NCBI GenBank assembly: GCA_043803685.1
Contig: JAZDJU010000059.1
Coordinates: forward strand, 1-48,658
Direction: 5' to 3'
Length of the DNA: 48,658 bases
DNA from: Candidatus Omnitrophota bacterium
Lineage (GTDB): Bacteria; Omnitrophota; Omnitrophia; Omnitrophales; Aquincolibacteriaceae
In this document: piece by piece, positions 2 through 32,615 of the stretch
Position numbering within the stretch: the stretch's first letter is position 1
How the letters are laid out: every line of letters begins with the position of its first letter
The notes under the pieces: model-generated
Told to the model about the DNA's origin: nothing
Seen by the model: the letters and a program-made list of their open reading frames with translations, nothing else
Database searches by the model: none
Program-made: the position numbers and the translations under genes

Positions 2-742
2 GGTCCTTCGCAGCAGGGTCAGAGTGTCTACATCCGGTTTCTCGATCGCTAGCTGGATGTCTTTCCCTCCAGGAGTGTTTATCGATCCTTCCTTGGGGAG
101 GAAAACCCCAAGAGCATAAAGATCGGGATTATCCAGAGACATTTCCTGGCCAAAAACCTGGAAACCTCCGTGCCCGGATTTCACAAGTTCTCCCTTTTCA
201 TTAAAAACGGGATCCTGGACCGACCGCAGCCTTGCCGGGTATTCAGGAGCGATCGCCGCATCGATCGCGTAAACGAACACACCGTCCCTGGCCTTGGATT
301 CCTTGTTCCATATCCGCTGCCACAGGGTCTGCTCCAACCCCGTCCGTTCACCGGACGCGGTCATATGCAGACCTTTATTGAGATGGTATCGCGGCAACAG
401 AAGCGACAAACGCATCGCCAACCCGCTCATCAGGAACGCACCGACCGTCTTGCCGCGGGCCTTTTCCAGATTGAAATCGGGACCAAATTTTTCGTTAAGC
501 GCGGTGGCGACATCGGTGATACGCGCCAGACTCCCCGCTCCCTTTTCGCCGCGCTCCACCATCGGTAACCGTTCCTCATGGAACAACGTCCCGACATTGT
601 TCTGCAATATCTGTCCCACAGCGCCCACGGACGCCGGCGTCGTCACGACCACATTCGCATCAAAATCACGCTTGGGATCCCGCACCGCCTCCCGGAGATC
701 CTCTTCCGCCATCCTGACATACGCGAGCACATGGGCGTTTTC
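2..742 (-). other. Further nucleotidyltransferase-like module of giant A (truncated by the window edge)
   Basis: GAFLMSGLAMRLSLL...NKGL, VFVYAIDA and LYALGVF...IQLAIEKP follow the order of NTP_transferase motifs (LAGGxGxRL..K, GD, YGV...EKP). Confidence 0.5.
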
Positions 743-3700
743 CCGAATTTCGGAACGCGTGACGGCGGCCTTCGGAGTAACGACGACGATTCCGGCTGTC
801 CCCGTTTCATACCGGAATCCCTTCGGACTGCTCGCTGCATCCACGAATTTACCATCGCCCCGTGTAAATGCGTCCTTGCTGTTCGCCAGGAGATACACGC
901 TCATGATCTTCTCCCCGATCTCTGAGCTCTTCGAGGCCACAGCATCCTGAATTTCAGTGTAAGTATAACCTTTGCCATCGGGGTAATATTTCTTCCCCGT
1001 CAGAACGATCATGGCAACCTTCCCGCTTTCCGTGATCCCGATAAGGTTGTGGGGATAACGCGCGGGACGCATCTTGACATGAAGGTTATTGTTCTCAATA
1101 TAATACTCGCCTGGCGCTAACTCATTCCAAGGCTTGGCTATCACAGGTTTATAGTCCCAGAGCCAGTTCTGCAACGCTCCCTTTTCAATCGCCGCCCGAA
1201 TCTCGACGGGCGTCGAACCCTTCTTCACATAAGGTTCCAGATCCACCGCTCCGGTAAGATACGGCGTCAGATCGATTTCCGTATAACCATCGCGCTGTGC
1301 CGCTTTGAGAAGTTCAGGCCTGTCCTGGGGAACGACCGGGTATTCCTTGCCACGCCTCAACTGATCGAGGCCGATATTCGCCCCGTACTTTGGCCCGCCA
1401 TCCGGGTTCTGGGTCAAAAACTGCGGAACGTCATACAACTGAAAAATATCGCTAAATTGGTGCGAGACACGCGCCAGCGGAACCTTCACGCCATTCTCGA
1501 TGAGTCTCTGTCCAAAGACCGCGAAATTTATGTCCCCACCCATATGTTTCTTCTCAGGATCCGCCGCACGATAGACACGCACACCGCCCTTAACAGCGGC
1601 GTCTTTCAGGAACCGGAGGTCCTCGGAAGACACATGACGGTCCTTCCAGGAAACGAACATACTGTAAGTTCTGTCCTGGAACGGTTCATTGAGCGCGTGA
1701 TAAAGCTTCCCGGTCTCGCCGTTATAAGCCACGAACCAGTCATTGTGGTAGAGGTCGTGATAGGAGTAGAGCGCAAGTTGCCCCACCGATGCATTGTTCA
1801 CAGGCAGGAGCGGCGTCTCAAACTCAGTCCACGGCCTATCCGCTCCCTTGGGAAGCCCATGATCGCTCGGATACATATTGTTGATCGCCTCATTCGCCAC
1901 GAATCGAAGATATTTCGTAGCCGGATCGATCACATCCACCACCTGTGGATATTGCTCTCGCATCTCAGAACGAGCGCTGCCGGTCTTTGAGACATTCTCT
2001 GAAGGATTACGCACCGCGGTCGTGGCTAACTGCATCCGGAGCGCGCCAAGATCGCCCTTGGCTTTCTTGTAAGTCCGCCCCCCGCCCAAGTAAGGCAGCG
2101 AGATAAGATCCTTCCGATGCTCCTGCTCAAGCTTCGATTTCTTTTCAGAAATTCGCGCACTTAGCGTCTTATCATCAACCGGTTTATCCGAGACTTCATT
2201 TTCATCCGCAACAGCTTGAATAGCCGCTTGCATCGCCTCAAACAATTTCTCATCTGAGAGGGTATAGACATCCTTCCAAGCCGAAATACCATCAATCCCC
2301 AAAAGAAGCGGGTGCATGGCGGTAAAAGCCTTGTACAGTGCCTCACCCATCGGAAGATCCTTAACATCCTCATAACGAACACCCGAAGTGTTCAGAAGCC
2401 CCTGGAACTGCGGGACAAATCTCTGATAAGACATCGCCTCGATCCCGGGCTGCAATACTTTCGGATCGGTCACTCCCGCCAGAGCACGAGCCGAGCCCAA
2501 CAATGCCGAAAGATCCGTCTTCGTCAACCGCGCCGACGGAATTCTTGAAATCTCTTCGGCGATCGCGTGTCCTTTTTGAACGCTGGAAAGCGCAGACGAA
2601 CCGTTGATCTTGAGGATCTCCTTTTGCACCTTTTCCCGGGTCTCGTCACTAATATCTTCACTGAAGATCAAACTCACGAGTTCCAGCCAATCCAGAGGAC
2701 CGTTGACATAGGCCGACAAAGAATGCTCCATCGCACTTTCAAAATCATCTGCGATCCCTAAACGGCTCTCGATCATGGACCATCTCTCGAACCCGCCCAC
2801 GATCTTCGGAAGCGTCTTGCGAACCACCGCATTTCCGTTTTCCTTAACCGTCTCCGCCTTGTAAGGAATGCTGTTGATCATCCGGGCGAGATAACTCGTT
2901 CCATCCGCATATTGAAGCGTCGTAAGGGTCTCATCCCCATAGACCACAAGCTTCTGCGCAGGTTCAGAATTCCCGACCTCCCGGACCTTTCCAGGCTCAA
3001 AATCGACCCCGAGAACAACACCCCCTTCTCCATGAAACTCCATCGGACCTTTCACTGTGGAATCGATGATCTTCGTCCTTGCAGGGATCCGAAGTGTTTC
3101 ACCATTGAGATAAATCTTTGAGCTCTCAATGACCACATGTTCGCTGATCTCCACCGTACCTGTCCCAGAAAACTCCACGTTCCTTAGGAGATAATGAAGG
3201 TCCGCACGATTCCCGTTATAAACCACCGTAATACCGTCTGCCTTCTTGACCTGGATCTCCTTGGGACCGGAATAATCCCTCAAATACTGCTCCCACATCA
3301 GGAAATACTGCTCCAGTCCCGCAATGTCACTGACAACACTGCCTTCCCCGTACGAGATCCCGTAGATCTTCGAGACGTACTTCTGAACAATGGGCCGGGC
3401 ACGCAATGTCACTACTGGCTTTTGTCCGGACTTCGGGAAAAAGCCGCCGAACACTGTCTCGAAAACGCTCACAGGAATACGCGCCAAGCGACCATCTTTT
3501 CCGTAAACACTCTGCTTGTTAAAATCCTCCACCAAGTGATAGCTCGTATCCGCCTTCTCGATCACAAAGAAGATGTTCTCGATCACCTGGGCGTCTTCAC
3601 CCTTCGAAGAATGATCGTACGCCAGCTTCACGAGCGCTTTCTCATTGGGCTTCTCACGAAAATCCTGCATCACTCCCGCCGCATCCGTCACATAGATCCC

Positions 3701-24700: not shown

Positions 24701-27700
24701 GGCTATCTCGAGGCTAGGCTGCTTCCCTTTCAAGATGCCGGCGAGTTCGGGGTTTTTCGCCACTTCCGCTTGAAAGTTCTTGATCGCTTGAGGAATGTTC
24801 GCCTGGATCCAGGCGTTAAGGTTCGAGAGCGTTGCATCCTTCCCTTCTCGCGCAAGCGCGGCTTTACCTACCTCGATCACATTTCGAAGATCGGCCGAAT
24901 AAGTTCGCAACGCATCGCTTTCCTGATAGGAAACCGGTTCCTTAGCTTCTTTCACCGGAGCGGGAGCTTTAACCGCTGGCTCGGTAGCAGGCTTCGCCAT
25001 CGGAGCAACCTTCACCACGGCCTTCGAGAACCCTGCGTCAACCCATTGAAAGAGCACTTTGGTGTTCGTCCCAAAGTAGCCGGTGTCCGGAGAAACAGCA
25101 ACCGTCTGAAGTTTTGCGCCGCCCAACTGCGCGCTCATTGCGGCAGAAGGAGATCCCTTCAGAACACCGAGAAGCTCAGGATATTTTGACGCCTCAGTCT
25201 GGAAGTTTTTGATCAATCCGGGATACTGATCACGGAACCACTTATTGAGAAGCGCAGGCGTCCGCTCCATGCCTTCCTTAGCAAATGCTTTCTCACTCTC
25301 GGCAAGCCTGAGCTTCATTTCTCGAGTCAGTGTTCGCAGTGTCTGACTTTCAAGATACGCGCCCACCGCCGGAAACTCTTTGGATGGCTCAACGATCGAT
25401 TTAGCCGGTTCTTCAATAGTGACCGGTGCGATTACAGGAGTGACCTTCGGAGTGGCCATATCCGCAGGAGCTTGCGCAGCAGTTTTTCCAACACTCGCCT
25501 CCAGCTTGGCAAGTTTTCCTTGCAAAGAACGTATTTCCTCTAGATAGAGAGTCGTGTAAACATCGTTGAGTTGAGCGCTTGTCTTTCCGCTCACCACCAT
25601 CTCTTGTCTCAGCGCCAAACCATCTTGCGCAAATTTTATTTTTCCAAGCGTCTCTTTTATCTGCAAAGAGATCTCCTCAGCGGACCCACCTGCCGGCTCA
25701 GTGAATTTTTTAAACGCAGCTTCCGAAGCAGTCTTGGAAGTGGCCATGTCCGGAGTAGCTTGAGAAGCTTCCTCCGCAGCTTTCGGGATGAGATCTGCGG
25801 GAGGCGTCACCGCAAACGACGATGTCGGCGAAATAGATTCCAGGATACCATTCCCGAGAGCGGCAAACCCCGACACAACAGGATCAAGGGTTTTATGCCC
25901 CCACGAGATCATCTTGTGTTCGACAAAACCTACGACGTGACTCGCAAGCATCCAGTTTTCATTAAAGCGGAAATCAACACCCACGGACTCCAAGCCAGAA
26001 TTAGCCGCCCCTAATACCGATTTATCGAGCAACTGAACAAAGCCGTCCGTGCGGGCATCAAAAGCCAACCCTTGAACGTGCACAGGAGCCGCTCCCGCAT
26101 GATCAGGAACTTCAACGCCCGCAAGCGTTCCGATCTCAACATTCACAAGGGCCATACCAACGCCGCCCGCGTAAGACTCCATAAGATAAGCCTTAAAAAG
26201 GTCCCACGTGGTAAACACTGTAAAAATACTAACGAGTCTGGAACGGATCTGAAGAATTCCGCGATCCAACACAGACAAAGCCGGAGCTCCCTCTTGCGAC
26301 ACAAGCCCAAGGCTTTCGAGCTGAGCATCAAACTTCGCACGCTGAGCGTCAGAAGTAAACCGGATCAAGTTAAGCCTGCGGAGCGTCACGAGGTCCTGAG
26401 CCACATCGCGACTCAGTTTCCCTTCCGCGATCAACGAAAGGATCCGCATCACAACCTGCCCCGTCAAAAGAACCTGAAATGCCTGCAACCCTCTCAATTT
26501 TACGGGGGTCGAGGAACCTTCGGCGGTGAAAGTCGTCATTTGCGCTTCGATCGCGTCAAAAACTTTCCGGGACTCCTCGCTGACCCATCTATGGTTCGCA
26601 AGAATGGCTTTGTCGCTGAAATGCTGACTAAGAAGCCCGATATACTTTTCCATGGCAAGAGTGGCGCCCATTCCCATAGCCACGGCGAGCCCCTGAAGCG
26701 TGAGCGCTTTAGCCAACAGCGTAACAAAGGCACTCAGAACAGGAACTTCGGCGGTCAGAACAATGGCCTTTGCGAAAAATCCTGCAAAAAGCTGCGCGGA
26801 AGCAATACCCGCCGGGAGAAGCGAGAAACCGAGAGCCACCCCAGCGCCCACAACCATCATCAGAGCTGCAAGCTTCCACCGGCCTTCCATGAACTTCGCC
26901 AGAGGATTGAACCAGGGATCAATGCCCCAGGCATAAACTGAACGGGCGATACTGAGGGAGGTCTTTCCAAGAGCACTCTGGGGCATTCCATAGTTAAAGC
27001 CGTGAACGATCCTCTTGCCGAGATCCGCTTTCAGAAAAACGGCATAAGCGATCTTGTGTAAAAATCCCTTTCCTTTCCAGTCTTCATGGGTCGCACCGTA
27101 GTATTTTTGCTCCGACAACAACGCCACGCCGTCCAGCAACGAAAGAGCCTCAACAAGAGGCATCACCGTCTGCGTTTTGCTCTGGAACAATCCGAAACGC
27201 TGGCCCCATTTGTCCGGCCAGAATCGTACAAAGTTTAAAACGATGCCCGGCCAATGCCAAAACGCAAGTGCTCCCATAATGGGGTTAAACGCCATTTGAA
27301 CCGCACCCAGAGCCCCTTTCGCTTGTGTCTTACTTTGCGCCTTGATCTGCCTTTCCCGGGCCTTCGCACTAGCGACCTGTTCATCATGCGTGCGTTTGAA
27401 CTGGTTGTACGCAAGACGCCAATCAACTGAATCGAGATCCTTACCACGAACCTTCTGAAAATATTCCGCCGCGATCGTCTCATCGCCATCAAACCAGTTG
27501 TGGACCACCGCCTGCCTCAACTTTTCCTGACTCGCATTCCATGGATTCCACACCCATGTGAATTTAACTTTCCTCGGTTGGACATTTTCCGTGACCTGTG
27601 TCAAAGGCGTTAAAAACGCCGTGAATTTTTGTTCTGCTGAAACGACCTCGGATTTAGCGGCTTCGGGTGCGGCGGGTTGCGCTTCGGGCTGGGCGACCAC

Positions 27701-30319
27701 AGACTGCTTTTCTTTCGCAAGCTCCTGGATCCTCCCCATACTAAGGGACACCGTCACCGCATTGACCGAAACTCCCGGGATCGCGCGCAGGGCCGGGATC
27801 TTCTGACGGATCATATCGGCGCTGGAACGGAGAAGAAGACGAAGAATGGTCGCCTGCGAAAGCCCTTCAGTGCCAACTTCTTTAAGAGCCGTCAACTTCT
27901 GATCTAGATTCCTGTTAAGGAGAATTGTGCGGAAGGCTACCTCCTGAGAAGTAAGATCCTTCGTCTTGCCAAGATCAATCCCCTCGGGAACCGAAAATCC
28001 TGCCGCTAAATAGCTCTTCAGACTGGCCGCGATGCGCCCTTGCTCCGATTGGACTTTGGCTTCACCTATCGCTTTTTCCTGAACGGCTGCAACCTCAGCT
28101 TCAGCATTCACCGCGCCCGGTTGAGGTTTCGAAGCGATCGTCCCCACCGTCACATCAAGATCGCCGATCCGGGCGTGACTTGTGCCAAACCGGGCATTGT
28201 GACGATCCAGGATCGTTTGCGGGATCATCGCCAGATCGCGATTGATGTTCGGATAATAGATCCAACGCTCACTCCCAACCTGAATGGACTGGGTTTTTCC
28301 CTGCGCCCCGGCAACTCGAACTTCCCGTTGTCCGCGTTCTTGCGCGGCACTCTGGATCAGGAACGCCGCCGTCTGAGTGCCATTCAGCATCCAAACGACC
28401 TTGCCATCGACATAGGCGCCATCGAACTTCGCGAATTCACTGTCCACCAACGTCTTCGCGGCGGGATTAAGCACCTTGGCGGCTCCTCTCAACGCTTCTA
28501 ATGCAAGCGCTGCATCTTTTTCGGCTGCGATACTCGCCACAATACTCATGCGGATCTCGGAACGGGCCAGCGACAGTTGTTGCCCCCCTGCGATAAGACC
28601 TCCCAGAGTGGGAGTCATGTGCTCAGCAGATAACTGAAACCGGGGGTCGTTCAGGACGCCGGTCTTGGGCTGGAGGAACGCCTCTGAGAGAACCTTCTCG
28701 ATCGGGAGCGGGGTTTCGCGGAGCGCGGCGTCATAGAGAGCGGATTCCTTGGCCTGATCGATCGCTTTGGTGATGCGCGGCGCGACTACTATATAGGAGA
28801 GGTCCTTCTCACGAAGGTACTTCTCGATCCCGGGCGTATGGAAACCACCTGTGACGATGGCGGATATCTTCGCACCCGTAGCAAAGGTTTTCTCAACCGC
28901 TCGCTCGATCAGCACCTGGTCCCGCTCAAGAGCGGCTTTATAGAAGCGCTCCACTCGCGGGAGATCCTGATCGAGGATCTTCACTTGGGACGGCAATCCG
29001 TAGGTGAAGTGATACTGCGTCATGAGCGGTGTGAGAAAACTAACGAAAGTCTCCGATTTGAACTCGTTCTGATAGGTATAAAAGAACTCGGCGTCCTGCT
29101 TGGTCAGCGTGAAATCGAACATTTTGCAATAGATGTCATAGATACGGAGCACGTGGTCGAGCTTGACCTGCTCATTAGAGGTGAAAAGCTTGTTCTTGAC
29201 CGTCTTCTCGAGGAACTCGATCTCGTCAAAGATCGAAACGTCGATCGCGTCATAGAGCTTCATATATTGAATGTAGGCCATGACGTTGGCGTATTTCGCG
29301 CTCAGGTCCTCTCCCGTCGTTGCCGCGCTCACGCCCGCGATCTCATCCTGGAGATATCCATAGTAGGCGGCGCGCTTCATCTTCTTCATGCGGAAGTGAA
29401 CGGTGTTGGTCAGAAAGCGGGAGAGCTTTTCGCGGGAGAGGACGAGCTTGAGGTCGTTAATGAGCTGGTCCGTCTCTTTTTCGGCCTTATCGAAATCGAC
29501 CTGCTTTTCAAGATCGACCAATTGGATCAGGGAATGCATCCGGGGATATTCATCCAACGCGATATGATGCTTCCGGGAAAGCTCGACTAGATAGCGAACA
29601 TAAGCAACGAGTTCCGGTCCGCCTTCCTGGAACGCGGCGCGGCGGCGGATCAGTTCGCGCAACTCTTCGGGAAAAACGAAACGGCTGACGCCCACGAGCA
29701 CCTTATCCAGTTCGGCCAGAACTTTTTCATCACGATCCTTAAACTGAAGCGCGTCGACATAGGCCTTCCGGTTCTCTTCATAGAGGTCTTTGTCTTCCAC
29801 GCCAAAAAGGGTCATCGCCGGCTTATCAACGATCGCCAGATGCTCCGGCCCGGTGAGACGTCCTTCCTTCAAGAAATAATCGGCGACATTCTTGCGGGCA
29901 TCCTTGTTCGGAAAGAATGAAAAGAGTTCGGGGTAAAGTTCTCCGGAGGCGCCTTCAAGGTTCACGAGGCCCAGCTGGTACTTCTCGGAAAAATAGCGAA
30001 GGATGTTGCCGATATTGCGCTGGGCTTCTTCGTTGATATGGGCATCCTGGATCGCAAGGATGACCGGCTCGCGGTTCCCTTTGAAGGAACTCTTGATCGT
30101 GCCATAACTGTCGGGAAGATCGGGACGATCGATCAGAGAAAGAATGGCATTCGCTTTAAAAGTTTCGACCGGAGAAATATTTTGAGAATTGGATGCGGCC
30201 GCGTAAGCTTTATTAATGCCGCCGTCCCAGACGACGGACGTAAAAGAAAACACACAGACCGTCAAAAGCGCAACGGTCCTGAGCCACGGTTTAAAACTGT
30301 GTGTTTGCCATGAAATCAT
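2..30319 (-). CDS. Giant multidomain membrane protein A, at least 10,106 aa, 3'-truncated by the window edge
   Basis: ATG at 30319-30317 follows a GAGAGGA RBS-like sequence. Translation begins MISWQTHSFKPWLRTVALLTVCVFSFTSVVWDGGINKAYAAAS. Manual translation stays open to the window edge (...KDIQLAIEKPDVDTLTLLRRT). The ORF track lists no minus-strand ORF in this frame, so there is no stop. Most long plus-strand ORFs in 170..30313 start at positions equal to 2 mod 3, i.e. they are its antisense shadows. Confidence 0.95.
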   Translation of the reverse strand, partial: MISWQTHSFKPWLRTVALLTVCVFSFTSVVWDGGINKAYAAASNSQNISPVETFKANAILSLIDRPDLPDSYGTIKSSFKGNREPVILAIQDAHINEEAQRNIGNILRYFSEKYQLGLVNLEGASGELYPELFSFFPNKDARKNVADYFLKEGRLTGPEHLAIVDKPAMTLFGVEDKDLYEENRKAYVDALQFKDRDEKVLAELDKVLVGVSRFVFPEELRELIRRRAAFQEGGPELVAYVRYLVELSRKHHIALDEYPRMHSLIQLVDLEKQVDFDKAEKETDQLINDLKLVLSREKLSRFLTNTVHFRMKKMKRAAYYGYLQDEIAGVSAATTGEDLSAKYANVMAYIQYMKLYDAIDVSIFDEIEFLEKTVKNKLFTSNEQVKLDHVLRIYDIYCKMFDFTLTKQDAEFFYTYQNEFKSETFVSFLTPLMTQYHFTYGLPSQVKILDQDLPRVERFYKAALERDQVLIERAVEKTFATGAKISAIVTGGFHTPGIEKYLREKDLSYIVVAPRITKAIDQAKESALYDAALRETPLPIEKVLSEAFLQPKTGVLNDPRFQLSAEHMTPTLGGLIAGGQQLSLARSEIRMSIVASIAAEKDAALALEALRGAAKVLNPAAKTLVDSEFAKFDGAYVDGKVVWMLNGTQTAAFLIQSAAQERGQREVRVAGAQGKTQSIQVGSERWIYYPNINRDLAMIPQTILDRHNARFGTSHARIGDLDVTVGTIASKPQPGAVNAEAEVAAVQEKAIGEAKVQSEQGRIAASLKSYLAAGFSVPEGIDLGKTKDLTSQEVAFRTILLNRNLDQKLTALKEVGTEGLSQATILRLLLRSSADMIRQKIPALRAIPGVSVNAVTVSLSMGRIQELAKEKQSVVAQPEAQPAAPEAAKSEVVSAEQKFTAFLTPLTQVTENVQPRKVKFTWVWNPWNASQEKLRQAVVHNWFDGDETIAAEYFQKVRGKDLDSVDWRLAYNQFKRTHDEQVASAKARERQIKAQSKTQAKGALGAVQMAFNPIMGALAFWHWPGIVLNFVRFWPDKWGQRFGLFQSKTQTVMPLVEALSLLDGVALLSEQKYYGATHEDWKGKGFLHKIAYAVFLKADLGKRIVHGFNYGMPQSALGKTSLSIARSVYAWGIDPWFNPLAKFMEGRWKLAALMMVVGAGVALGFSLLPAGIASAQLFAGFFAKAIVLTAEVPVLSAFVTLLAKALTLQGLAVAMGMGATLAMEKYIGLLSQHFSDKAILANHRWVSEESRKVFDAIEAQMTTFTAEGSSTPVKLRGLQAFQVLLTGQVVMRILSLIAEGKLSRDVAQDLVTLRRLNLIRFTSDAQRAKFDAQLESLGLVSQEGAPALSVLDRGILQIRSRLVSIFTVFTTWDLFKAYLMESYAGGVGMALVNVEIGTLAGVEVPDHAGAAPVHVQGLAFDARTDGFVQLLDKSVLGAANSGLESVGVDFRFNENWMLASHVVGFVEHKMISWGHKTLDPVVSGFAALGNGILESISPTSSFAVTPPADLIPKAAEEASQATPDMATSKTASEAAFKKFTEPAGGSAEEISLQIKETLGKIKFAQDGLALRQEMVVSGKTSAQLNDVYTTLYLEEIRSLQGKLAKLEASVGKTAAQAPADMATPKVTPVIAPVTIEEPAKSIVEPSKEFPAVGAYLESQTLRTLTREMKLRLAESEKAFAKEGMERTPALLNKWFRDQYPGLIKNFQTEASKYPELLGVLKGSPSAAMSAQLGGAKLQTVAVSPDTGYFGTNTKVLFQWVDAGFSKAVVKVAPMAKPATEPAVKAPAPVKEAKEPVSYQESDALRTYSADLRNVIEVGKAALAREGKDATLSNLNAWIQANIPQAIKNFQAEVAKNPELAGILKGKQPSLEIAKKIPVGQTLTPLKGAGVDNILGGNTLAALAVISGPIAIGEKAIAKIAAPTPSKVAVQPLTVVEAPAPKAELKPAQVAATPAPETEKKAVQKIERSGVKKLIKEAAVSGPMGVAAEVTRPKKDLHEQLLSAREAAEDRLDTRVEEYAERLSSFLSVEVLHQIRRQATGADRKGSDELLKRAGVINILSERYAKSLNDYFKDKYSDNSKKAIDPKVALKEDTDNLIARFGEFIKDPESFQGIPGGPLSPSELEIVRDVFKIAIPLRVKEIGAGKVTPAIPLVIIDSPEYRPDGKAIGLDQLLNKAVNHSMTVGGASEKVAKALAHYHRNERGVTLSVVARAGSDFFNAAPINAGVGFELKVSISDPSAKVKDNLAKEREDEAELMVQRVAADTVREVRTHLNNYFRSKALAEGLRDNLAKVRIDEEKARDNTKTGMDPDAAAAIERARRDLEYDLEARVQEQAEILRAIGALIGVTEKTIVFDEALEGAGKDPVNAEEIRKKSEALLARYKVSMGGAMNMDRVLAQGKYSVDVLGTAYREAQEKMAVFFNPRIFLNFSGAGDFRIPLSFTRDPQTHPMIHMIARDRAAYQYFLDAQGIEANLADLKGRVESAQQAAQRAIARFQSAQELMDLERERFKESGWAERFKSAVENYSRERTAMNHAYHEQERLQIEVDRFAAGVSGTLSKFEKDFEKDKEKAKAGQSSKPFDAEYFTQLEAKLGSPGSPTSVDVTDPKRNLELGSNANLRFEDLRARELRERMIQTLSAAGIKFVGKVDALDVNLDGKIDDAKEREVMIEDLQDAEAGLFDEFERATALADRSVFQMIGDLFRSKPRAPEVIMTEIQKINGIKHEALKAMLPEIMRGVWEGQKEEIKDLMDQAQAVRDSSETTQDRKEQAGREFDALKKVLSQVNADLEKLGPPKSKERLKLGGYSFAGGGIESIGIFDGAMGVGFTGTWDPDLSGQLDFFYQALRESELLEQAHAREYVKNILDQRDALDEIHSRIVWLGMGIEDMTRSEKVLVIGTAKGERLITVTSEAGGGQYLGRLADGTKVRVNVQPTEGDRRIVAITDLSGKKLDLGGSPFIQEERPRGLLVLLKDQLNGLRELKLPLDETKAKRDDLDIQIRSGTQRLEFLRDAKTSLEDAYGRQKQKMLRLMGRNVGEKGDTLIYTPADEQSFSVIKKDYVTPVKQGMEAWVAETERRAFEPEIDQNVADQRVRIQWALWSAAEQANYKQLYLMFPFLSNASGDKGVGELGGSASLRLYSGALSKDKDLNIQIARTNLGVVYEDYQKFLLREPLVYENLGYQVKNTVDQKKETQRLLGDLDRENQVEFSAKQQRAVTGAGEADLFTAIGRVNRATQADNLLIHTRNEHLRSRDLAVKSPARAGAVSSDAENNRLKDMGIRGGRLIISQDQESFEKFVAASSDRVASSNERLARDLSDIQKEYRLLRHAGASAEASKIPLGLGSGDDLQIGVRLTMDLVEALLKSGQAEAYELRAKQLGKENEYRQDLKRRLVRLAWQDVLRAKAILGIREEQARWREKLNASADVGMAKEDHTAIDGEMIRTRTMVETAKRDLSISENMLKFVAEIPKDVKIDVPETKLLDQVSNGEEIQGDIVRDMLKSALDDPRYQAIIENVNVADAAIREEWQKRVGTSQAGAFLGTTQSLGVEATVHLIHAQQGALLKLEEAKKELAKVQSDPLLRSIQLQALNEYATFVQNRVRLLQMANEFAMSETSATDVVNGYRAKGITGTKVRTINEAHAALNRLEIDALQLSGAHFELNKSVINFKSTLALMKLGDVAKKLESVAQKTLPVETHQRDALEKLEAAGKRISEAAIEVKKIDEQLEGVSPTPKPPVDMIKELKDVSQVLAREPRQDYRDPSAAAYEPAVKVLWKNIFGVDDIAKKDLNKEDGRIKGGLSPVIVVEDIFVNLFNAMQLNPNQRLAMLEIMKVLSEPGSKGNASLRDKLKDPEFLKLVDPEQGVPRDEKWGLHFAQVIEGLLDTDIIAAMSQKEDATELDEKTDLRVLGAYVFYAASILKELKPQELNRVEASKVPAMVRARFTDLFNQGFSERLEVHFIFLSKILENIAAQSKQKDRAPVRIEFTDAELGVLTRDGLFARLVETLDKREDFKGWLARQKMANPKDTFFAPKDEKGWKQLKTRFATEALFDWYTYTQRRVSEAPYFMFSKQVSEPFQDFDEVRKIVGPLYLKHFGRDSALYGDMAMGSLPDLTAWQFMSFMGKIYSPDKAVRFDRLRAIALLADEILQNERARIKKVYELKPGELRALPSDGVMLRFLEAKQRPDSIPDMREVEKELMSLRNGQLFGEVMFRTINTLEQYARGQGLVSKSAFGAVFPEDPKMFDWLMLNGFFVEEEGIKGHPAELTEKKIAALKTKYPETDYPGQADRIVAMLQQAKPMGLGPVLDQLAKQGPGALKAGPFSGLSDDIHDSYRAMPRIADALRKGLYPKIDIKTSRKDRGVVTAWYENARYNELSPESIEKWIEISFNMNKALGKDGTGQITNETQKELGTLFAVAREIATKPSAWKDFFNADGTPVNKDNIWMLFSVLLKSEEKGKANPVLDQYLKDTDGDGAYKAKANNPRAQVGDQVMLARDLTLKLAGVDEEGSKGDAIKKENGAAGYLAEAKKILDKRKAIYEITNPKGEAPSVAVSTLKVRADDLDAEYTTIHRLFDRDGKLGLEEYKKQVATYYDWVNTVLKARANVGNDLINAFKEDGKYKTLPFWMTEQEKGRMLKSIDDLSTEPYTVNEAKAWVEEQIRWGLAKTDNAENAKKDIERRVEVEMYLQAANDLYPVIDSGKPGVENDGKGQRQFLTRGELASYSRVIMLREKLDAMQEKPDTQQVKPDAEKKETEPALQFYARLLTGRGLLAAALDGREFKDPDGNELNPYVPQKGIDNKFAYDGIVRDFSAEIAKRLEEFGFVGIGQDGNPTKDNRATIKSKDLVRWVKENHARWPIEKIFGNISRDLEIQDRNAEGYRGAKFFPKEAGALERRIYDWLADAAILEAVLYERYGTFSAPEALPGLVRSARGNALTIRERPGFKMEIRERQAIQHLRDKYETELYMNIDTRTATRKIPELNGHTAEEARDYRFLYRQILGVDLPATIGPEADNVFGIKWGLSQFSNLTQVLSAQGYTPAQIEAAQFEFMIAMKDARDAFIRATYGSSPDVSKVLDPAALASLDARIKAFVDQQAAWFIQNYSKQKARIAQERDGTLRNKEGELEKKRLALEENRRKLLAATAERFKTETYVLVAKETVQRLADALTKMNENVPELKAKPIEFSRSDLMSLAGEMLRSGYSETEILIMNGYIIPQVAQDMGQAADIDRIDIKNAVGERDVSAEKDMKARILHRARQILDRAQFQNGEAIPAVLLERIKVVREEFMDVQDRETKVKKKFADIRAMLSETEWKELYESEKELKDQIQRIAEDSHNRSIPSEAVEKWLDLGIQIYKDANATKGATPDMKRVLFEADSLLKLGLAAQPDPYPWAEGTEKDLVSQTLGAFLGEEGSPMDPYQLRPKGVDAESPEAANYSRAGFVKSDKDWFWKFFNLGRNREIEKSLESAQEAKWAENPELKEKQREALEARIQAMLEANAITPLDLYNFMQRVKEKYQKLLDASYQASQESSLQSDPRPKPKLESPLWLALLEDLQNPDPAKRIGLFEILTSHIPAAEVKGNDPTVTGKVLIPFIPETDINGRDQLVTDKFAALTRRLNMDFMEQYSAPRRYSQTDIAAEEKALREQGVSETDIAEKVKAMREFAERSFFADAINFEAGEKKLRIPGTDLEIPLPNFNTPEAPLQQIFFYAFMGAFIAFFFRLIFKRSKYKHLEKKVALTVPTGRAEGQSTKRSEVRVEDLDARAQAKLKKEAEVGDWIKKRQWADMRLNVGKALYGYSDLVLVFWSMAVITPWAGAVAAVPIAISMLAYKFLYNSLTETFWSTILARPKGVAWLTGLAALSITVSGFWGGGWVVLFGWFALNYWALPLVVLPYVLAIWIALDKKNGLIVDDIDSTGWEMSEKEVKSIMTEIQAIHAEEKAGTLSGDVLAKRKGELQARIQVKDMNEVLGEHRPKDLPEGVDYEFRDGELTLYVQPWLLDYSEPNDWPKVIDSLARILIGNNFRQTRVVLQAGARVWGDAEMKKAAALQEMAKVYWPYLGDNDPGRGRFVPGHERMMIVYMPACRKPARNVEMVGAFTGWGNDGTTPQSGAGATLEGADEAVTVHVRNGRAFIIGSKLGVKTHIRKGAEALKVSLRDPSKKAINDLVIKDLIDNEWVTAKNATAEQLTAAINRVFESGSLYDEVVGVENGLKEPSKALLEAHQAHNVAEWQRAKDDVESALADLENAKAAAKVAPEAEKNEKNKIVKEKEKNFEKQNKLFMSLDAKWKIRNWILIKEAYSPEIRDIVAPYETYVPTLNEPFFRGTATPDRAFVPYGEVKDTLAFQDLLPKKKADGTFELDENSEPIPNVRYSTTVDGSNFAFAGASVYFTRNLARRPDIGILQGATFYDSDEASMGWTQGKAIHKMLFRTIMFAAALANYNRAFGKYVVMTKVSRRMSAQTKGFVWGPYRTRTGLLDGLLFKHLDTLSESAIVSLVTPKEGENTPPKTFSLNLTGDNGLGGKVNGEDEIVTATPADSWEIVRFAHEKMVRIQGYKDRQSTSSGLSRFFYRLWHLRNMPWSVQALDNLPSKFFEDLASIEPPLQGVSTTLLVRADGKGLIGDDRDMNFLTLLQKMEKWLKSNDIPTTWLRLFGRSFARTKAPKFFDDKPIKGMFSNPFWRLTLGIMLFAALVPGVYGVIAVLGAQWLGLLILTMVFVPSLFGAIVNGLERFGVKGFGGEARAPGSGRRFLEIPMDLLRWIDEKGGTTYLTFVLDIMDFIEATEDFFRFLHKVDSPGARPADLTAKTEAMKEYWRPSTVRRGLLVGFTAVFLLFGIGLSPIMPPLVMSLSGGIIAIVVSIVAFWIPMLRTTQQPTEYKHRLQQYLNQYHKDKYGDGKAFIKTAESKTPKLFFQMWADSYKRSWRGAAVGLVVGSIIVLGIISGVAGFSILGLSGALVFKYGMGAAVAGFVGWFLREVFRGDKRKEYEAVALRRIGSSLLLASGALITVGFALPLLAAVVPFYYLPLTMPLWFAFLAKPVADYWDGVLMEAGKADRRSMYRAVAALGLTFGMIYSHTLQSLFGYFHQHFDPNTFFVSVGSGVGGMDGSALFHLALQGNDPWMMGWATFIIASTFIRLAGGFVEWLRSKMAQKKTQAGAPPTAPPATNAPAAPATSPAAPAAQESDRVQTWQKSLEVWRAEEASTVDKIEALAAQLQTTQRDSKEWNEIIANKSFSESELSKIRARISQAEASIGTKRSEVRNVPSASARSEMRTVAAYLGETRITLGELADSFRGVLSVEKSGDGDSLMLIRADTGAELRIRRVIEYGQPWDGRSLVIGNRLYELQGGESPEVDLYELVHSADPLQALGNQELLDFVGLKTPSLEKTPASKESGVRVVLYDSLKDPLSRIAEPHRVGEPISEKALEEARVYFKQHPYSVDEDRQSTIVRLHYLAVLSQSSVPAGGSRESVLKDGILFTNELEKLAMENKDVEIATWIEEVLFSSSLLVIREVPGKAQAAELLLTDDEKRHLDTQTPFEITSAETSSDEFDHLQAIFAEVVRAGKIKPFFIINIQNFTPRTYLAYVSFLREMSRKFNGNITFFLSIQSPGVNLPGEAKPYKPLDHDLPGTFTSRRRVLERMGRDFYLEEYTANVSDGGEKTRAANAGIRFEHWSKTLMAEGMTFLEGNMLTGGVMWLLLPKLGKGFKFWLASDGRIRFGKIHLGGKPLSELPADFQIAAAGPEALVLSAKDRDALAQLRSQFAWDSPGLNSNPTFQKIWSRAVANIARRVLTQRGIYVTDAAGVMQDFREKPNEKALVKLAYDHSSKGEDANVIENIFFVIEKADTSYHLVEDFNKQSVYGKDGRLARIPVSVFETVFGGFFPKDGQKPVVTLRTRPIVQKHVAKIYGISYGEGSVVSDIAGLEQYFLMWEQYLRDYAGSKEIEVKKTDGITVTYNGNPADLHYLLRNVEFSGTGTVEIGEHVVIESSKIALQGEMLSIPARTKIIDSSVKGPMEFHGEGGVVLGVDFESGKVQEINGSTPDRLVVYGDETLSTLQYADGTSYLTRMVNSIPYKAEEVKASESSLVVRKTLPKIVGGFERWSLIESRLGIKDEFEAAMERPLSAYISGPLDWLELVSLIFSEDISDETRGKVQKEILKINGSSALSPVQKGHAIAKVIADIPSARLTKTDLSPLLGSASALVGVTNPSVLQPGIEAMSQQRFVPQFRDLLNKSGVRYDEVKNLQMGEALYKAFSAMHPLLLGIPGISTWEDVYTLSSGKLLEKTQAAVQAFVTKKEMAGEEADNKDLAKLTATIEKEHRKDLISLPYLGGGRTYKKAKGDLGALRMQLATTAVRNPMGDVSAVGGARSEMRQVAAYLGETGITLGALADSFSSVLSVEKSGDGDSLMLVRMDTGAELRIRRVVEYGKPWDGKSLVIGNRLYELQQGEASEVDLYALVHSADPLQVLGNQELLDFVGLKTPPFETAPVSPKESDVRVVLYDSLKDPISRIAEPHRVAEPVSEKALEEARVYFKQHPYAADEDRQSTIVRLHYLAVLSQSNVPSGMSREEVLNDGILFTDELEKLAMGNKDVEVATWIEEVLFSSSLLVVREVPGKAQASELLLTGEEKRHLDTETPFEISSAETSSDEFDRLQGIFAEAVREGKLKPFFIINIQNFTPRTYLAYVSFLREMSKKYNGNITFFLSIQSPGVTLPGEAKPYKPLDHDLPGTFTSRRRVLDRMGRDFYLQEYTANVSDGGEKTRAANAGIRFEHWSKTLMAEGMTFLEGNMLTGGVMWLLLPKLGKGFKLWLASDGRIRFGKIHLGGKPLSELPSDFQIAAAGPEALVLSAKDRDALEPLMSQFAWDTAGLNGNPTFQKIWSRAEANIARRVLTQRGIYVTDAAGVMQDFREKPNEKALVKLAYDHSSKGEDAQVIENIFFVIEKADTSYHLVEDFNKQSVYGKDGRLARIPVSVFETVFGGFFPKSGQKPVVTLRARPIVQKYVSKIYGISYGEGSVVSDIAGLEQYFLMWEQYLRDYSGPKEIQVKKADGITVVYNGNRADLHYLLRNVEFSGTGTVEISEHVVIESSKIYLNGETLRIPARTKIIDSTVKGPMEFHGEGGVVLGVDFEPGKVREVGNSEPAQKLVVYGDETLTTLQYADGTSYLARMINSIPYKAETVKENGNAVVRKTLPKIVGGFERWSMIESRLGIADDFESAMEHSLSAYVNGPLDWLELVSLIFSEDISDETREKVQKEILKINGSSALSSVQKGHAIAEEISRIPSARLTKTDLSALLGSARALAGVTDPKVLQPGIEAMSYQRFVPQFQGLLNTSGVRYEDVKDLPMGEALYKAFTAMHPLLLGIDGISAWKDVYTLSDEKLFEAMQAAIQAVADENEVSDKPVDDKTLSARISEKKSKLEQEHRKDLISLPYLGGGRTYKKAKGDLGALRMQLATTAVRNPSENVSKTGSARSEMREQYPQVVDVIDPATKYLRFVANEAINNMYPSDHGLPKGADRPWTEFETPLLPVNNASVGQLALYSYHDLYHNDWFVAYNGETGKLYHALNEPFQDRTYSMFVSWKDRHVSSEDLRFLKDAAVKGGVRVYRAADPEKKHMGGDINFAVFGQRLIENGVKVPLARVSHQFSDIFQLYDVPQFLTQNPDGGPKYGANIGLDQLRRGKEYPVVPQDRPELLKAAQRDGYTEIDLTPYLTGAVDLEPYVKKGSTPVEIRAAIEKGALQNWLWDYKPVIAKPWNELAPGEYYIENNNLHVKMRPARYPHNLIGITESGKVAMIVLTGKKYYPDGKGYTYTEIQDAVASKSSEIGEKIMSVYLLANSKDAFTRGDGKFVDAASSPKGFRYETGTAGIVVVTPKAAVTRSEIRENAHVLAYVRMAEEDLREAVRDPKRDFDANVVVTTPASVGAVGQILQNNVGTLFHEERLPMVERGEKGAGSLARITDVATALNEKFGPDFNLEKARGKTVGAFLMSGLAMRLSLLLPRYHLNKGLHMTASGERTGLEQTLWQRIWNKESKARDGVFVYAIDAAIAPEYPARLRSVQDPVFNEKGELVKSGHGGFQVFGQEMSLDNPDLYALGVFLPKEGSINTPGGKDIQLAIEKPDVDTLTLLRRT
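760..1957 (-). other. Phosphodiester glycosidase (NAGPA-like) module of giant A
   Basis: RPARYPHNLIGITESGKVAMIVLTGK...GYTYTEIQDAV...VYLLANSKDA resembles RHPRTAIG..DG.LLLVVVDGR...G.T..ELA...NLDGGGS. The module is bounded by RSEMR and RSEIR. Confidence 0.5.
1973..8569 (-). repeat. Intragenic tandem duplication, two ~3.3-kb (~1100-aa) units, each with a sugar-1-phosphate nucleotidyltransferase-like domain and a beta-helix-like segment
   Basis: 5279-8569 and 1973-5278 are collinear with an offset of about 3294 nt; 3609-3706 is identical to 6903-7000. Both units begin with RSEMR. Motifs: NVSDGGEKTRAAN, GIYVTDAAGVMQDFREKP, and a downstream LRNVEF.GTGTVEI.EHVVIESSKI segment. Confidence 0.9.
8930..12990 (-). 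other. OpgH/MdoH-like membrane GT2 glucosyltransferase module with eroded catalytic motifs
   Basis: Motifs appear in OpgH order: AEMKKAAAL (AEQKAW), RKPARNVEMVGAFTGWG (RKSGNIDDFCRRWG), RYSTTVDGSN (YMVVLDADS), ARRPDIGILQ (ANPNAGIIQ), KHLDTLSESAIV (SHDFVEAAL), LDNLPSKFFEDLASIEPPLQG ([20 protein letters not shown]). Multiple hydrophobic helices flank the core. Confidence 0.6.
19320..23820 (-). other. Three tandem TolC/outer-membrane-efflux (OEP)-like protomers inside giant A
   Basis: Six helix/beta-hairpin/long-helix half-repeats, e.g. GLDQLLNKAVNHSMTVGGASEKVAKA...AGVGFELKVSISD...REVRTHLNNYFRSKAL; AQQAAQRAIARFQSAQELMDLERERF; ELGGSASLRLYSG...IQIARTNLG; LQIGVRLTMDL...VRLAWQDVLRAKAIL; KSALDDPRYQAIIENVNVADAAIREEW...LGVEATVHL. 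Approximate units: 22670-23820, 20560-22510, 19320-20480. Confidence 0.6.
24614..25360 (-). repeat. Two ~105-aa internal repeats with peptidoglycan-binding (PGBD-like) motifs, set in Pro/Ala-rich linkers
   Basis: YLESQTLR...LIKNFQTEASKYPELLGVLKG...DTGYFGTNTKVLF (about 25043-25360) and YQESDALR...AIKNFQAEVAKNPELAGILKG...VDNILGGNTLAAL (about 24614-24931) resemble the PG_binding_1 pattern AVxxFQ...DGxxGxxTxxAL. Confidence 0.5.
28740..30130 (-). other. N-terminal domain of giant A, TraB/Tiki/EreA-ChaN-like, paralogous to the N-terminus of giant B
   Basis: Motifs AIQDAH (30038-30055), NLEGASG..PELF, FGVED, ERDQVL and IVTGGFH (28838-28858) align in order with HIQSAH, FLEGAAG..PELF, FGMED, LRENKM and IVTGGFH of giant B. 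Confidence 0.65.
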
Positions 30320-30910: not shown

Positions 30911-31702
30911 TCAGAAGAGCTTGAGGATTTCCTTGAAGGTGTTCCGTATTTCTTCGTTGATACTTCCCTCCTCGATCCATCCGCGGAGGAATGGCCGCAA
31001 CATAAGATATCCGGGCGAAGCGTTAGAAGAGAGATATTCGCGAATATTGTCGCGAAAAGCGTTGAAATATTCGTCCTTTTCAAAACCGGCCAAGGCCGCG
31101 AGAAGAGCCGCCTTATCGGGATGAAATTTGAGAATAAAATAGACATAGAACAAGTCCTTGTCCCGCTTGAACCCTTCGGAACGAATCACAAAGGTGATCG
31201 CCTTATGATAAAAAAAGATCTCGGGCGTAGGCACCTTGACGGTTAACAATTCATTCTTGACCTTGATCGGGACAGTCACCGTTTGCTTCAAAAGCAGCTC
31301 AAAAGCCTCGATCCTGTTGCAGGCGAGTTCACTTCCGAGAAAGCGGTTCAGGGTATCATCCGAGGTTTCAAAGGAAGTGATAAATTCAACCTTCAGTTTT
31401 ACAGCCTTTTTCTGGTAAATGAATTCGACGGGAAGCTCCTCGTCCTCACAGATCCGTTCCAGCGCATATCCGGCGGACTTGAGCTTTTCATAAACGGTGA
31501 CTTTGAATCGCCGGGTACCCGTCTCAAGAACTCCCAGATCGATATCGGTGGTGGTCGGGATCTCAGGGATCGGCTTCTTCCAAAGATAACGGGCATAGAG
31601 ATAAGGACACCAACCACCCACTACGACGATCTCGGGCAACACGTCCTTTAAGACTGCCAGCGTCTCTTGAAATCCGGATTCAAGCTTCTCAAGATCCGAC
31701 AA
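30911..31702 (-). CDS. AbiEii/GSU2403-like nucleotidyltransferase-fold toxin (type IV toxin-antitoxin / abortive infection), ~263 aa
   Basis: IVVVGGW...TTDIDL nucleotidyltransferase motif and HKAIT...KRDKDLFY. Likely TTG start at 31702 after GGGAGGGAGG, overlapping the upstream gene's stop; the track start at 31879 lies deep inside the upstream gene. Confidence 0.75.
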   Translation of the reverse strand: MSDLEKLESGFQETLAVLKDVLPEIVVVGGWCPYLYARYLWKKPIPEIPTTTDIDLGVLETGTRRFKVTVYEKLKSAGYALERICEDEELPVEFIYQKKAVKLKVEFITSFETSDDTLNRFLGSELACNRIEAFELLLKQTVTVPIKVKNELLTVKVPTPEIFFYHKAITFVIRSEGFKRDKDLFYVYFILKFHPDKAALLAALAGFEKDEYFNAFRDNIREYLSSNASPGYLMLRPFLRGWIEEGSINEEIRNTFKEILKLF

Positions 31703-32381: not shown

Positions 32382-32439
32382 ATGAGTATCTCGCTCATTG
32401 TTATGTCTCAATATATATCGAGAGTTACGATCTGTCGAG

Positions 32440-32467
32440 ACTATATATTTTGAATTATAACTGTCAA
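32440..32467 (-). promoter_or_regulatory. Sigma70 promoter of the AbiE-like operon with an overlapping inverted repeat
   Basis: TTGACA (32467-32462), 16-nt spacer, TATAGT (32445-32440). AATATATA (32410-32417) and TATATATT (32442-32449) form an inverted pair that may be an autoregulatory operator. Confidence 0.7.
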
Positions 32468-32496
32468 CGCGGATGGGGTCAATAGCTGAAGCGGAT

Positions 32497-32615
32497 GTCA
32501 TTGCGAGGAGCGATTTTTGCGACGCGGCAATCTCGCTTTTAAAACAGACTGTCCGCCAGAGGACGGATCCGTCCAATGTTTTATGGCGGACTTCACCCTT
32601 CGGGTTCGCAATGAC
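32497..32615. repeat. REP-like palindromic element (GTCATTGCGA...TCGCAATGAC) containing a nested TCCGCCA...TGGCGGA hairpin
   Basis: Perfect 10-bp terminal inverted repeat, internal GCGACGCGGCAATCTC and CTTCACCCTTCGGG, and an inner palindrome at 32552-32590. Confidence 0.75.

Follow-up and report, generated by a model that had tools for sequence, protein, structure and literature searches.

A giant Omnitrophota gene with a TIKI-like head, pentapeptide punctuation and a cryptic glycan synthase: a possible processed polyprotein

The window considered here is an entire contig of 48,658 nucleotides (JAZDJU010000059.1, or C59) from a 2.89-Mb, 133-contig genome bin of a Candidatus Omnitrophota bacterium, and it holds a giant gene of 10,106 codons that runs along the reverse strand to the contig end. 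The gene belongs to a family of giants whose products begin with a signal-like segment and a ‘head’ domain of TIKI-like fold, and whose remaining modules are parted by a short peptide, R-[S/A]-E-x-R. Farther along the chain lies a membrane-integrated glycan synthase module, visible at the level of fold and missed by sequence methods. We estimate a probability of roughly 0.55 that the gene encodes the tools of synthase-dependent glycan production as one polyprotein, punctuated by the motif and then processed; its sequence makes a polyprotein the most likely nature of the chain, with cleavage presumed at the motif sites. The first-pass annotation of this DNA had described a single-gene, envelope-spanning glycan machine. 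The giant gene, its landmarks and the synthase stand; the head and the motif had been missed, and a processed polyprotein is now favoured over one continuous machine.

The very large family of this giant keeps to a fixed plan, in which a Sec-type signal leads into a TIKI/erythromycin-esterase-like head, followed by variable cargo modules parted by R-[S/A]-E-x-R. We infer the following topology and pathway logic. The exported part of the giant, mostly helical, perhaps TolC-like and some 5,100 residues long, would end at a stop-transfer helix, beyond which a membrane-integrated GT2-type synthase would polymerise a glycan and thread it across the membrane. The modules after the synthase are predicted to be cytoplasmic and resemble nucleotide-sugar enzymes; in the orthologues an epimerase/dehydratase joins them. 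At its seven motif sites the chain would be separated, or its units at least individually recognised. Separation would yield the head, the envelope part of 5,100 residues, the synthase, a paralogous pair of enzyme modules, a NAGPA-like module and other modules towards the C-terminus (Table 1).

Table 1. Features of the giant gene and its neighbours, with positions in the window.
Feature	Residues	Positions	Strand	Remarks
Giant open reading frame		2..30319	-	10,106 codons; ATG start; 3′ end open at contig end
Sec-type signal-like N-terminus	1-40	30200..30319	-	K10, R14, hydrophobic 15-31, AYA 38-40; read from sequence and hydrophobicity
TIKI/erythromycin-esterase-like head	41-585	28565..30199	-	Invariant Q91, H94, E122, R466, H494
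Motif site 1, RSEIR	586-590	28550..28564	-	Head/cargo border; RAELR in G044, KAELR in G036
Cargo 1 (motif-free, about 5,100 residues)	591-5691	13247..28549	-	Helix cluster, linker, 86-residue repeats, weak TolC/OEP-like stretch, long helical region
Hydrophobic helix cluster	1150-1215	26675..26872	-	Kyte-Doolittle scan
Two 86-residue helical repeats	1637-1722, 1780-1865	24725..25411	-	BLASTP 41% identity, E 4e-19
Weak TolC/OEP-like stretch	2170-2341	23297..23812	-	Pfam OEP E 0.002, 18.4 bits (cut-off 22), profile 2-180 of 187
Stop-transfer-like helix, then KRSKYKH	helix 5692-5710	13169..13246	-	Sequence and hydrophobicity scan
Motif site 2, RSEVR	5738-5742	13094..13108	-	RSELR in G044, RAELR in G036; flanks diverged
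Membrane-integrated processive GT-A (GT2-like) synthase module, by fold	5743-7238	8606..13093	-	Helices 5786-5887 and 6667-7011 around soluble GT-A region
Motif site 3, RSEVR	7239-7243	8591..8605	-	
Motif site 4, RSEMR	7251-7255	8555..8569	-	
Repeat module 1	7256-8347	5279..8554	-	Candidate sugar-1-phosphate nucleotidyltransferase with left-handed beta-helix; motifs DGGEKTR, G.M..F.EKP
Motif site 5, RSEMR	8348-8352	5264..5278	-	RSEVR ends homologous module in G132
Repeat module 2	8353-9449	1973..5263	-	939 of 1,097 residues identical to module 1
Motif site 6, RSEMR	9450-9454	1958..1972	-	RSESR in G044, RKERR in G036
NAGPA-like (phosphodiester glycosidase-like) module	9455-9854	758..1957	-	Pfam sub-threshold
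Motif site 7, RSEIR	9855-9859	743..757	-	RAEVR in G044, RKERR in G036
Last module, cut	9860-10106	2..742	-	No family match
322-residue NTP_transf_8 protein		30911..31879	-	Pfam E 1.2e-11
295-residue open reading frame		31689..32576	-	Overlaps start of the 322-residue frame
Neighbouring giant gene, 4,720 residues		32752..46914	-	Same head; 11 motif copies in 4,731-residue stop-to-stop frame; HEAT, CofD/YvcK-like and DUF218 modules
Small frames of 67, 103 and 137 residues		47359..48387		Upstream of the neighbouring giant

The frame is a genuine, conserved gene truncated at its 3′ end. It had first been noticed as a 30-kb open frame of more than 10,100 residues, and translation by script bears this out: none of the 10,106 codons is a stop, so that the in-frame stops named beforehand as evidence against it are absent from the assembled sequence. 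Judged from stop-codon frequency, a run of this length at a GC (guanine plus cytosine) content of about 52% cannot have arisen by chance. Since the window is the whole contig, the frame is cut by the end of the assembly and not by the choice of window. Complete collinear frames of 12,133 and 13,921 residues occur in a genome of the same genus (G044) and in one of the same family (G036), respectively; both orthologues have the N-terminus in common with this giant and the C-terminus in common with each other. The giant's last residues align with residues 10066–11096 of the former and 11675–12686 of the latter (the last module at 35% identity to G044 residues 10778–11096), and because the full frames are longer, about 1,000–1,250 residues are probably absent at the 3′ end. 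Extension of the contig towards the stop found no 21- to 127-mer overlap of its ends with other contigs, and none of seven 5′-open fragments matched the C-terminal parts of the orthologues; it is the full-length orthologues that bound the missing part. Close relatives of the first 585 residues lie at 30 loci in species-representative genomes, and the named records among them are all Ca. Omnitrophota or Omnitrophica, plus one Ca. Taenariivivens baikalensis, in agreement with the phylum proposed at first sight.

An artefactual frame, whether a collapsed or chimeric repeat mis-assembly or a pseudogene left open by accident, might be suspected because the contig terminates within the gene, because the 3′ part has two 3.3-kb repeats of the kind that breaks assemblies, and because the bin is 91% complete with 6.6% contamination. 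We consider it extremely improbable. The frame has not a single stop, and over residues 1–7250 and 9440–10104 it is collinear with two independent orthologues of full length; its motif sites are constrained at the protein level, and the repeat module is also present in a further genome (G132) and two other proteins. The tandem modules of about 1,100 residues are 84% identical in DNA, and are therefore true diverged copies, neither collapsed nor produced by duplication in the assembly.

The placement of the motif is the clearest sign of punctuation. RSE[VMI]R occurs exactly seven times in the giant, always at a module border and with no degenerate extra copy, and site 1 falls within a low-confidence linker of the AlphaFold head model. 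At four of the seven sites, both orthologues have the motif or one of its variants in the aligned columns, even though the flanks have diverged; the other three border lineage-specific repeats. In the source genome (G000), frames of at least 2,000 residues contain 111 copies per 96,840 residues, against 8 per 1,415,700 residues in frames of 100–500 residues, a density about 200 times higher. An unbiased count of 5-mers in the 150 best family proteins from outside this genome placed RSEMR, RSEVR, RSEAR, RSETR, RSESR, RSELR and RSEIR as the top seven words, enriched 104- to 703-fold. Family-wide, the sites have a median spacing of 204 residues and flanks rich in S/A/T/P, and the first lies at about residue 643. 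Members of the family were taken to have their first site 60–150 residues after the head and their cargo separated by the motif, an arrangement found in the giant, whose first site is at residue 586. The codons of the motif vary synonymously, with many codon sets in use; constraint therefore acts on the peptide, and a signal at the DNA or RNA level is rejected.

Motif and head go together within the genome. All 13 head-bearing frames of at least 1,200 residues in G000 have 4–25 copies, and the motif is absent from every one of the 18 headless frames whose 5′ end is intact, among them frames of 5,861, 5,124, 3,333 and 3,018 residues; three 5′-cut fragments carry two copies each. The form of the motif is characteristic of the genome. 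In G000 it is R-S-E-[V/M/A]-R, with serine in 147 of 163 R.E.R sites, and in nine giants of G036 it is R-A-E-[L/K/R]-R, with alanine in 81 of 124.

What follows the sites argues for independent units. Across 1,143 sites, hydrophobic segments are nearly absent from the 35 residues before a site and 3–4 times enriched just after it. Signal peptides with a lipobox follow 8 of 1,148 sites (one example counted twice), compared with 15 of 22,960 random positions. Targeting signals that start at the motif are what would be expected if a fresh N-terminus, or at the least a separately sorted unit, began there. In flavivirus-type polyproteins, internal signal peptides likewise sort the pieces. The Pfam domains of the orthologues start directly after a motif site, and module content is reshuffled between the orthologues at motif borders.

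The head is common to the whole family. Its signal-like start, seen at the first pass and borne out by K10 and R14, a hydrophobic stretch and AYA, is shared by all 14 aligned heads. The domain behind it had also been marked correctly, with its TIKI-like and family-wide nature overlooked. This region (residues 36–590) is the only module of the giant with paralogues in G000, where it opens 12 further giant frames and is also found in two genes that stand alone (634 and 739 residues). A profile of the 14 heads matches 9,861 clusters (50% identity) of a protein library at E ≤ 1e-3 and 6,774 at E ≤ 1e-30, and in all of the 150 best matches, proteins of 482–7,853 residues, the head is N-terminal. 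H94, E122 and G123 are invariant in an alignment of 50 heads, and Q91, R466 and G491-G492-F493-H494 are invariant or nearly so; the conserved signatures read IQ.AH, EGA, FY..A..R[DE] and TGGFH, and all 14 paralogous heads keep the glutamine three positions before the histidine. The domain goes unrecognised in Pfam, NCBIfam and PDB sequence or profile searches. The AlphaFold model (predicted local distance difference test, pLDDT, 81; predicted template-modelling score, pTM, 0.75) shows an alpha/beta core whose two halves are parted by a helical insert some 300 residues long. An all-against-all structure search matched the fold to HopBA1 (Z 8.5, 169 residues aligned), ChaN (Z 8.3, 187 aligned), BcR135 (Z 7.9 and 7.7) and EreC (Z 7.9, 189 aligned); TIKI-superfamily members fill five of the top seven rows, a repeat search gave a like picture, and the weak best rows of Foldseek include EreC, BcR135 and ChaN. 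A Tetrahymena respiratory complex IV subunit (8b6h_DQ, 7w5z_E, 8bqs_DQ) resembles the head to much the same degree as the TIKI members (Z 7.1–7.7, 152–188 aligned), and may itself be a TIKI/TraB-like protein.

The conserved residues of the head point in the same direction as the fold. HopBA1, Bcr135 and ChaN are counted as TIKI-superfamily members, and catalytic His-Glu pairs are described for Bcr135 (His-85/Glu-113) and for RRSP (His-3902/Glu-3930), the latter with a second essential histidine, H4030 (PMC6254334). H94 and E122 of the head are 28 residues apart, a spacing equal to that in Bcr135 and RRSP, and the invariant H494 resembles RRSP H4030. In the model, H94, E122 and H494 are each placed after a core strand, with strands 48–57 and 83–86 ending at H94 and E122. 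As modelled, the head would share with the TIKI hydrolases (EreC, 6xcq; Bcr135, 3b55 and 2rad; ChaN, 2g5g; HopBA1, 5t09; RRSP; Tiki) a parallel-sheet alpha/beta core; it has the 28-residue His-Glu spacing and a later histidine in common with them. Unlike them, it has the insert of about 300 residues, lacks a conserved first glutamate, has no Pfam, NCBIfam or PDB sequence match and always stands at the N-terminus of very long proteins. From the model, membership of the TIKI superfamily is likely and an active hydrolase site is plausible; RRSP and Tiki are sequence-specific endopeptidases (PMC6254334).

The first module beyond the predicted membrane crossing is accepted, on the basis of its structural model, as a membrane-integrated processive GT-A (GT2-like) synthase at fold level. 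Of 301 genomes of the phylum, 24 have homologues, which invariably lie in giant frames, of 1,927–13,921 residues. An alignment of 22 sequences conserves T.DG.N, QG.T.Y, R.FGKY, NGEDE, DDRD and KW, of which T.DG.N, NGEDE, DDRD and KW follow one another in that order. The signature motifs of GT2 synthases are named DxD, TED and QxxRW. The AlphaFold model of residues 5890–7089 (pLDDT 69.8, pTM 0.72) was matched by the structure aligner to the cyclic beta-1,2-glucan synthase Cgs (Z 15.3, 451 residues aligned, root-mean-square deviation 4.3), to BcsA (Z 13.1, 427 aligned, and 12.9) and to hyaluronan synthases (Z 11.8, 348 aligned, and 11.1), then to many GT-A enzymes, including SpsA (Z 10.6, 224 of 239 residues aligned). 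The top rows of Foldseek are almost all chitin, cyclic-glucan, hyaluronan and cellulose synthases. A search of the ESM Atlas with the module gave no usable match. The membrane GT2 of the first pass, likened there to OpgH, is therefore upheld at fold level by Cgs and BcsA, though missed by sequence methods; OpgH is absent from the structure-match rows, no comparison aimed at it having been made. An IdeS-like row in the PDB profile search (E 0.13) aligned NGEDEIV with NGKDDLL of the protease, had no cysteine at the catalytic position and was judged to be chance.

In BcsA (4p00, 9fmv) and Cgs (8rf9), as in the model of the synthase module, a cytoplasmic GT-A domain packs on a helix bundle, and the giant resembles synthase-dependent systems in that its synthase is accompanied by envelope parts and sugar-nucleotide enzymes. 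BcsA works with periplasmic and outer-membrane partners. Unlike the BcsA and Cgs systems, the module lacks detectable sequence similarity and a literal QxxRW, and all parts lie in one reading frame rather than in an operon; unlike in the Bcs systems, the role of a TolC-like duct partner is weakly indicated.

The modules after the synthase are enzyme-like to varying degrees. Pfam and NCBIfam scans of the giant in three pieces gave nothing significant, and module-by-module Pfam scans gave two sub-threshold matches (OEP and NAGPA). The repeat module is rare: among the 66 genomes of the family one other (G132) has it, and the protein library contains two examples. Its NCBIfam match to GlgC has an E value of 0.0011, and all ten language-model neighbours are NTP_transferase, Hexapep_GlmU or LbH_GLGC proteins (scores 0.84–0.86, a lead only). 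Comparison by hhalign with true nucleotidyltransferases recovered only the F.EKP motif (29 columns, probability 4.6%, from shallow alignments), and neither Pfam (PF00483) nor PDB sequence or profile searches found a match. A nucleotidyltransferase of GlgC/GlmU type with a beta-helix is thus possible for both copies, judging from sequence; of the pair proposed at the first pass, the tandem copies are real and three weak, mutually independent leads agree with the assignment, with no match at threshold level. The NAGPA-like module had likewise been named before, and its sub-threshold match to PF09992 over residues 9737–9794 (E 2.1e-4, 22.0 bits against a cut-off of 25, profile 69–125 of 169) recurs in the same region of both orthologues (E 1.1e-4, 22.9 bits in G044; E 0.032, 14.9 bits in G036); a PDB profile search gave no match. 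A further nucleotidyltransferase assigned to the cut last module finds no Pfam match and was not recovered. The general theme of sugar activation holds through the orthologues. Their sequences indicate that a sugar-nucleotide theme is real for this gene lineage, because their extra C-terminal modules contain, by Pfam, an NAD-dependent epimerase/dehydratase (E 3.4e-10 in G036, present in G044 too), DUF218, HEAT repeats and a weak UDP-glucose pyrophosphorylase, UDPGP (E 2e-4).

Cargo 1 is predicted to lie outside the cytoplasm, from its helices and the positive-inside rule, and has no paralogue in G000. Its early membrane helices, the Pro/Ala/Ser/Thr-rich linkers (residues 1493–1547, with another at 7125–7177) and the transmembrane helix followed by the basic KRSKYK were all pointed out in the first-pass annotation and are found again. 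The peptidoglycan-binding repeats reported there correspond to a real 86-residue repeat, which has no counterpart in the orthologues by BLAST and whose identity with a peptidoglycan-binding domain was not recovered: PG_binding_1 (PF01471) has no Pfam match in the giant or the orthologues, and hhalign against twelve true PG_binding_1 domains gave a probability of 6.2%, from alignments too shallow to prove absence. A six-frame search of G000 found PG_binding_1 on contigs C92 and C117 only. The earlier impression is probably explained by a likeness in sequence, as hhalign pairs A.A.EG...NFQ of the repeat with Q.AL..AG...FQ of PG_binding_1. Of the three TolC-like modules once proposed, there remains the sub-threshold OEP match listed in Table 1, with a second weak one at another position in the G044 orthologue (E 0.0068, 16.7 bits). 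Against nine true OEPs, hhalign gave a probability of 0.9%, again from shallow alignments that do not prove absence, and a PDB profile search with the stretch found no match.

Several results weigh against a processed glycan toolkit. At the level of modules, the nucleotidyltransferase call is below curated thresholds, the NAGPA call is consistent and sub-threshold, and so is the TolC/OEP call (PF02321). No Glycos_transf_2-type Pfam match exists in the synthase module or its 22 homologues, PDB sequence and profile searches find nothing for it, a literal QxxRW is absent, and its Foldseek E values are only 0.02–0.3, with none at or below 1e-3. The fold matches of the head are middling (Z 7.4–8.5), with no Foldseek row at E ≤ 1e-3 (best E 0.15) and an unrelated methyltransferase at rank 1 of the structure search (Z 9.0, 96 aligned); the first glutamate of the RRSP-type set of two histidines and two glutamates is not conserved, the position two before the histidine being D, S, N, T or E. 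Nor is the motif universal: RSE[VIM]R occurs in only 92 of the 150 best family proteins, one giant of genome G224 has the head and no motif excess (2 seen, 3.4 expected), and two giants of the more distant G060 have little excess (11 seen, 4.4 expected). Half of the giant (residues 591–5737) is without a site, so a chain cut into enzyme-sized pieces does not describe the whole. Finally, orthologous heads are 71–84% identical across genomes with different motif forms, and heads that are paralogues within a single genome are about 24% identical and nonetheless go with a common motif form; the head is predicted to be extracytoplasmic, and sites 2–7 are predicted to be cytoplasmic.

The two G060 giants (L093 and L094), in which R.E.R is barely enriched, have REQGT, EQGTG and IRSQD as recurrent words instead. 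These could be a different form of punctuation, or merely tandem repeats.

The last of these contrary points bear on the reader of the motif. Motif form tracks the genome and not the head lineage, and therefore co-evolves with something cell-wide. The head has the right fold for a motif reader, but the genome-tracking form favours one common reader per cell and makes a head that reads its own motif strictly in cis less likely. A signal-bearing head outside the membrane, with sites 2–7 inside it, is also not easily the reader of all sites. At somewhat less than even odds, we suggest that the chain really is separated at the sites, that a single machinery serving the whole cell reads them, that the giants are cellular polyproteins replacing operons, and that the pieces are sorted by their own signal or lipoprotein peptides. 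The reader might be a dedicated protease that co-evolves with the motif form, a hydrolase of TIKI head type acting in trans, or a ribosome skip resembling that of 2A peptides.

The same observations can be turned towards an uncut, envelope-spanning machine, in which the pentapeptides would be linker or docking motifs bound by a scaffold, a chaperone or the head. The order of modules fits such a topology, with an exported part, a stop-transfer helix and KRSKYK, a synthase and then cytoplasmic enzymes; half of the chain is free of the motif; short conserved motifs in S/A/T/P-rich linkers also fit protein binding, a genome-wide motif form fits any common binding partner, and cleavage is so far a deduction. 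We nevertheless hold this alternative to be unlikely, on the order of half as credible as the processed polyprotein, since full signal peptides, some with lipoboxes, begin right after motifs elsewhere in the family, and modules are shuffled freely at motif borders between orthologues, as expected for independent units.

A secreted polyprotein of several effectors, similar to MARTX toxins, would instead be exported whole, delivered to a host or prey cell and cut there by the TIKI-like head or by a host-activated factor, and its sugar-nucleotide enzymes would act on the cell-wall precursors of the victim. Every head has a signal-like N-terminus, and in the neighbouring giant about 3,400 enzyme-like residues precede the first hydrophobic helix. 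The TIKI-family endopeptidase RRSP belongs to autoprocessing MARTX toxins (PMC6254334), and Omnitrophota are described as host-dependent or predatory (bioRxiv 10.1101/2023.11.21.568195 and others). A synthase with about a dozen helices and a stop-transfer helix suggests the inner membrane of the producer itself, however; lipoprotein signals after motifs point to sorting in the producer's envelope, and Pfam scans of the giant show no secretion-system domain. This explanation is accordingly the less credible of the two, and we rate it improbable.

The surroundings of the gene contain a further member of the family. The neighbouring giant lies upstream on the same strand, with about 3,400 residues of enzyme-like modules between its signal and its first hydrophobic helix; at about residue 3405 it has ARSEVR, followed at once by the signal-peptide-like segment HSFLKLFFLAGAFAVVLSAPSA. 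Between the two giants, in a low-GC stretch (0.455), are the 322-residue protein and the overlapping 295-residue frame, which may, as a guess, form a nucleotidyltransferase-type toxin-antitoxin or defence pair. Of the small frames upstream of the neighbouring giant, that of 67 residues reads like a HicB-type antitoxin, and the adjacent frames of 103 and 137 residues read like a minimal nucleotidyltransferase with a HEPN partner.

Elsewhere in the source genome, about 20 frames exceed 2,000 residues. Those of 5,861, 5,124, 3,333 and 3,018 residues, on contigs C75, C72, C86 and C130, have neither head nor motif, and at least two unrelated kinds of giant gene are therefore present. Head-family frames comprise 69,379 codons, about 208 kb of the 2.89 Mb, or some 7% of the bin; in G036 about 17 such frames, of up to 13,921 residues, lie in 2.2 Mb. 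Stand-alone head genes of about 740 residues stand divergently beside giants on G000 C114 (739 residues, beside a giant of 5,189), G044 C14 (743 and 8,230) and G036 C1 (736 and 6,318). They keep the His/Glu/His residues and are, by sequence, candidate trans-acting partners.

MARTX toxins are processed by a cysteine protease domain and not by their TIKI module. Unlike them, the giant has no cysteine protease domain that could be found, and unlike MARTX and viral polyproteins it would serve housekeeping or envelope building, in a genome with a dozen or more such genes. The likeness lies in the many units on one chain, separated at short linker sites, and for MARTX in the inclusion of a TIKI-family module (PMC6254334). 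Among Omnitrophota giants, the giant fits as a new member the class termed ‘multi-enzyme metabolic cluster’, which is rich in sugar metabolism (bioRxiv 10.64898/2026.06.07.730766). The published giants, so far as the text consulted describes them, also exceed 10,000 residues and have a signal, membrane helices and many enzyme modules on one chain, especially for sugar metabolism. They carry C39 and S8 peptidase domains; this giant has no dockerin, C39 or S8 domain by Pfam and, unlike those described, has a TIKI-like head and a pentapeptide at its module borders. The N-terminal regions of giant genes are said to ‘generally lack identifiable domains’, their cleavage points to be unknown, which blocks analysis module by module, and whether the products work whole or cleaved is posed as a question (bioRxiv 10.1101/2023.11.21.568195). 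The motif and the terms TIKI, TraB and esterase are absent from the searched text of both preprints. A literature word search for RSEVR, RSEMR, RSExR and RSEAR returned nothing relevant, and among the matches listed no paper links Omnitrophota or Omnitrophica to TIKI, TraB or erythromycin esterase. The present analysis adds the strict coupling of head and motif within a genome, the genome-specific motif forms that cut across the orthology of the heads, the signal peptides behind motif sites, the matching His-Glu spacing and the recognition, by fold, of a cryptic processive synthase.

A pentapeptide that is tied to the head, conserved in position, specific in form to the genome and followed by sorting signals makes the question of whole or cut products directly testable, and it gives a rule for splitting giants into units for structure prediction. 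The cryptic processive glycan synthase, unseen by sequence methods, recurs in the giants of 24 genomes out of 301 searched in the phylum. Giant genes account for about 7% of this genome, and their share in relatives is larger. If the processed-polyprotein reading is true, a single gene would yield a complete synthase-dependent glycan factory whose duct, synthase and nucleotide-sugar enzymes are made in a constant 1:1 ratio.

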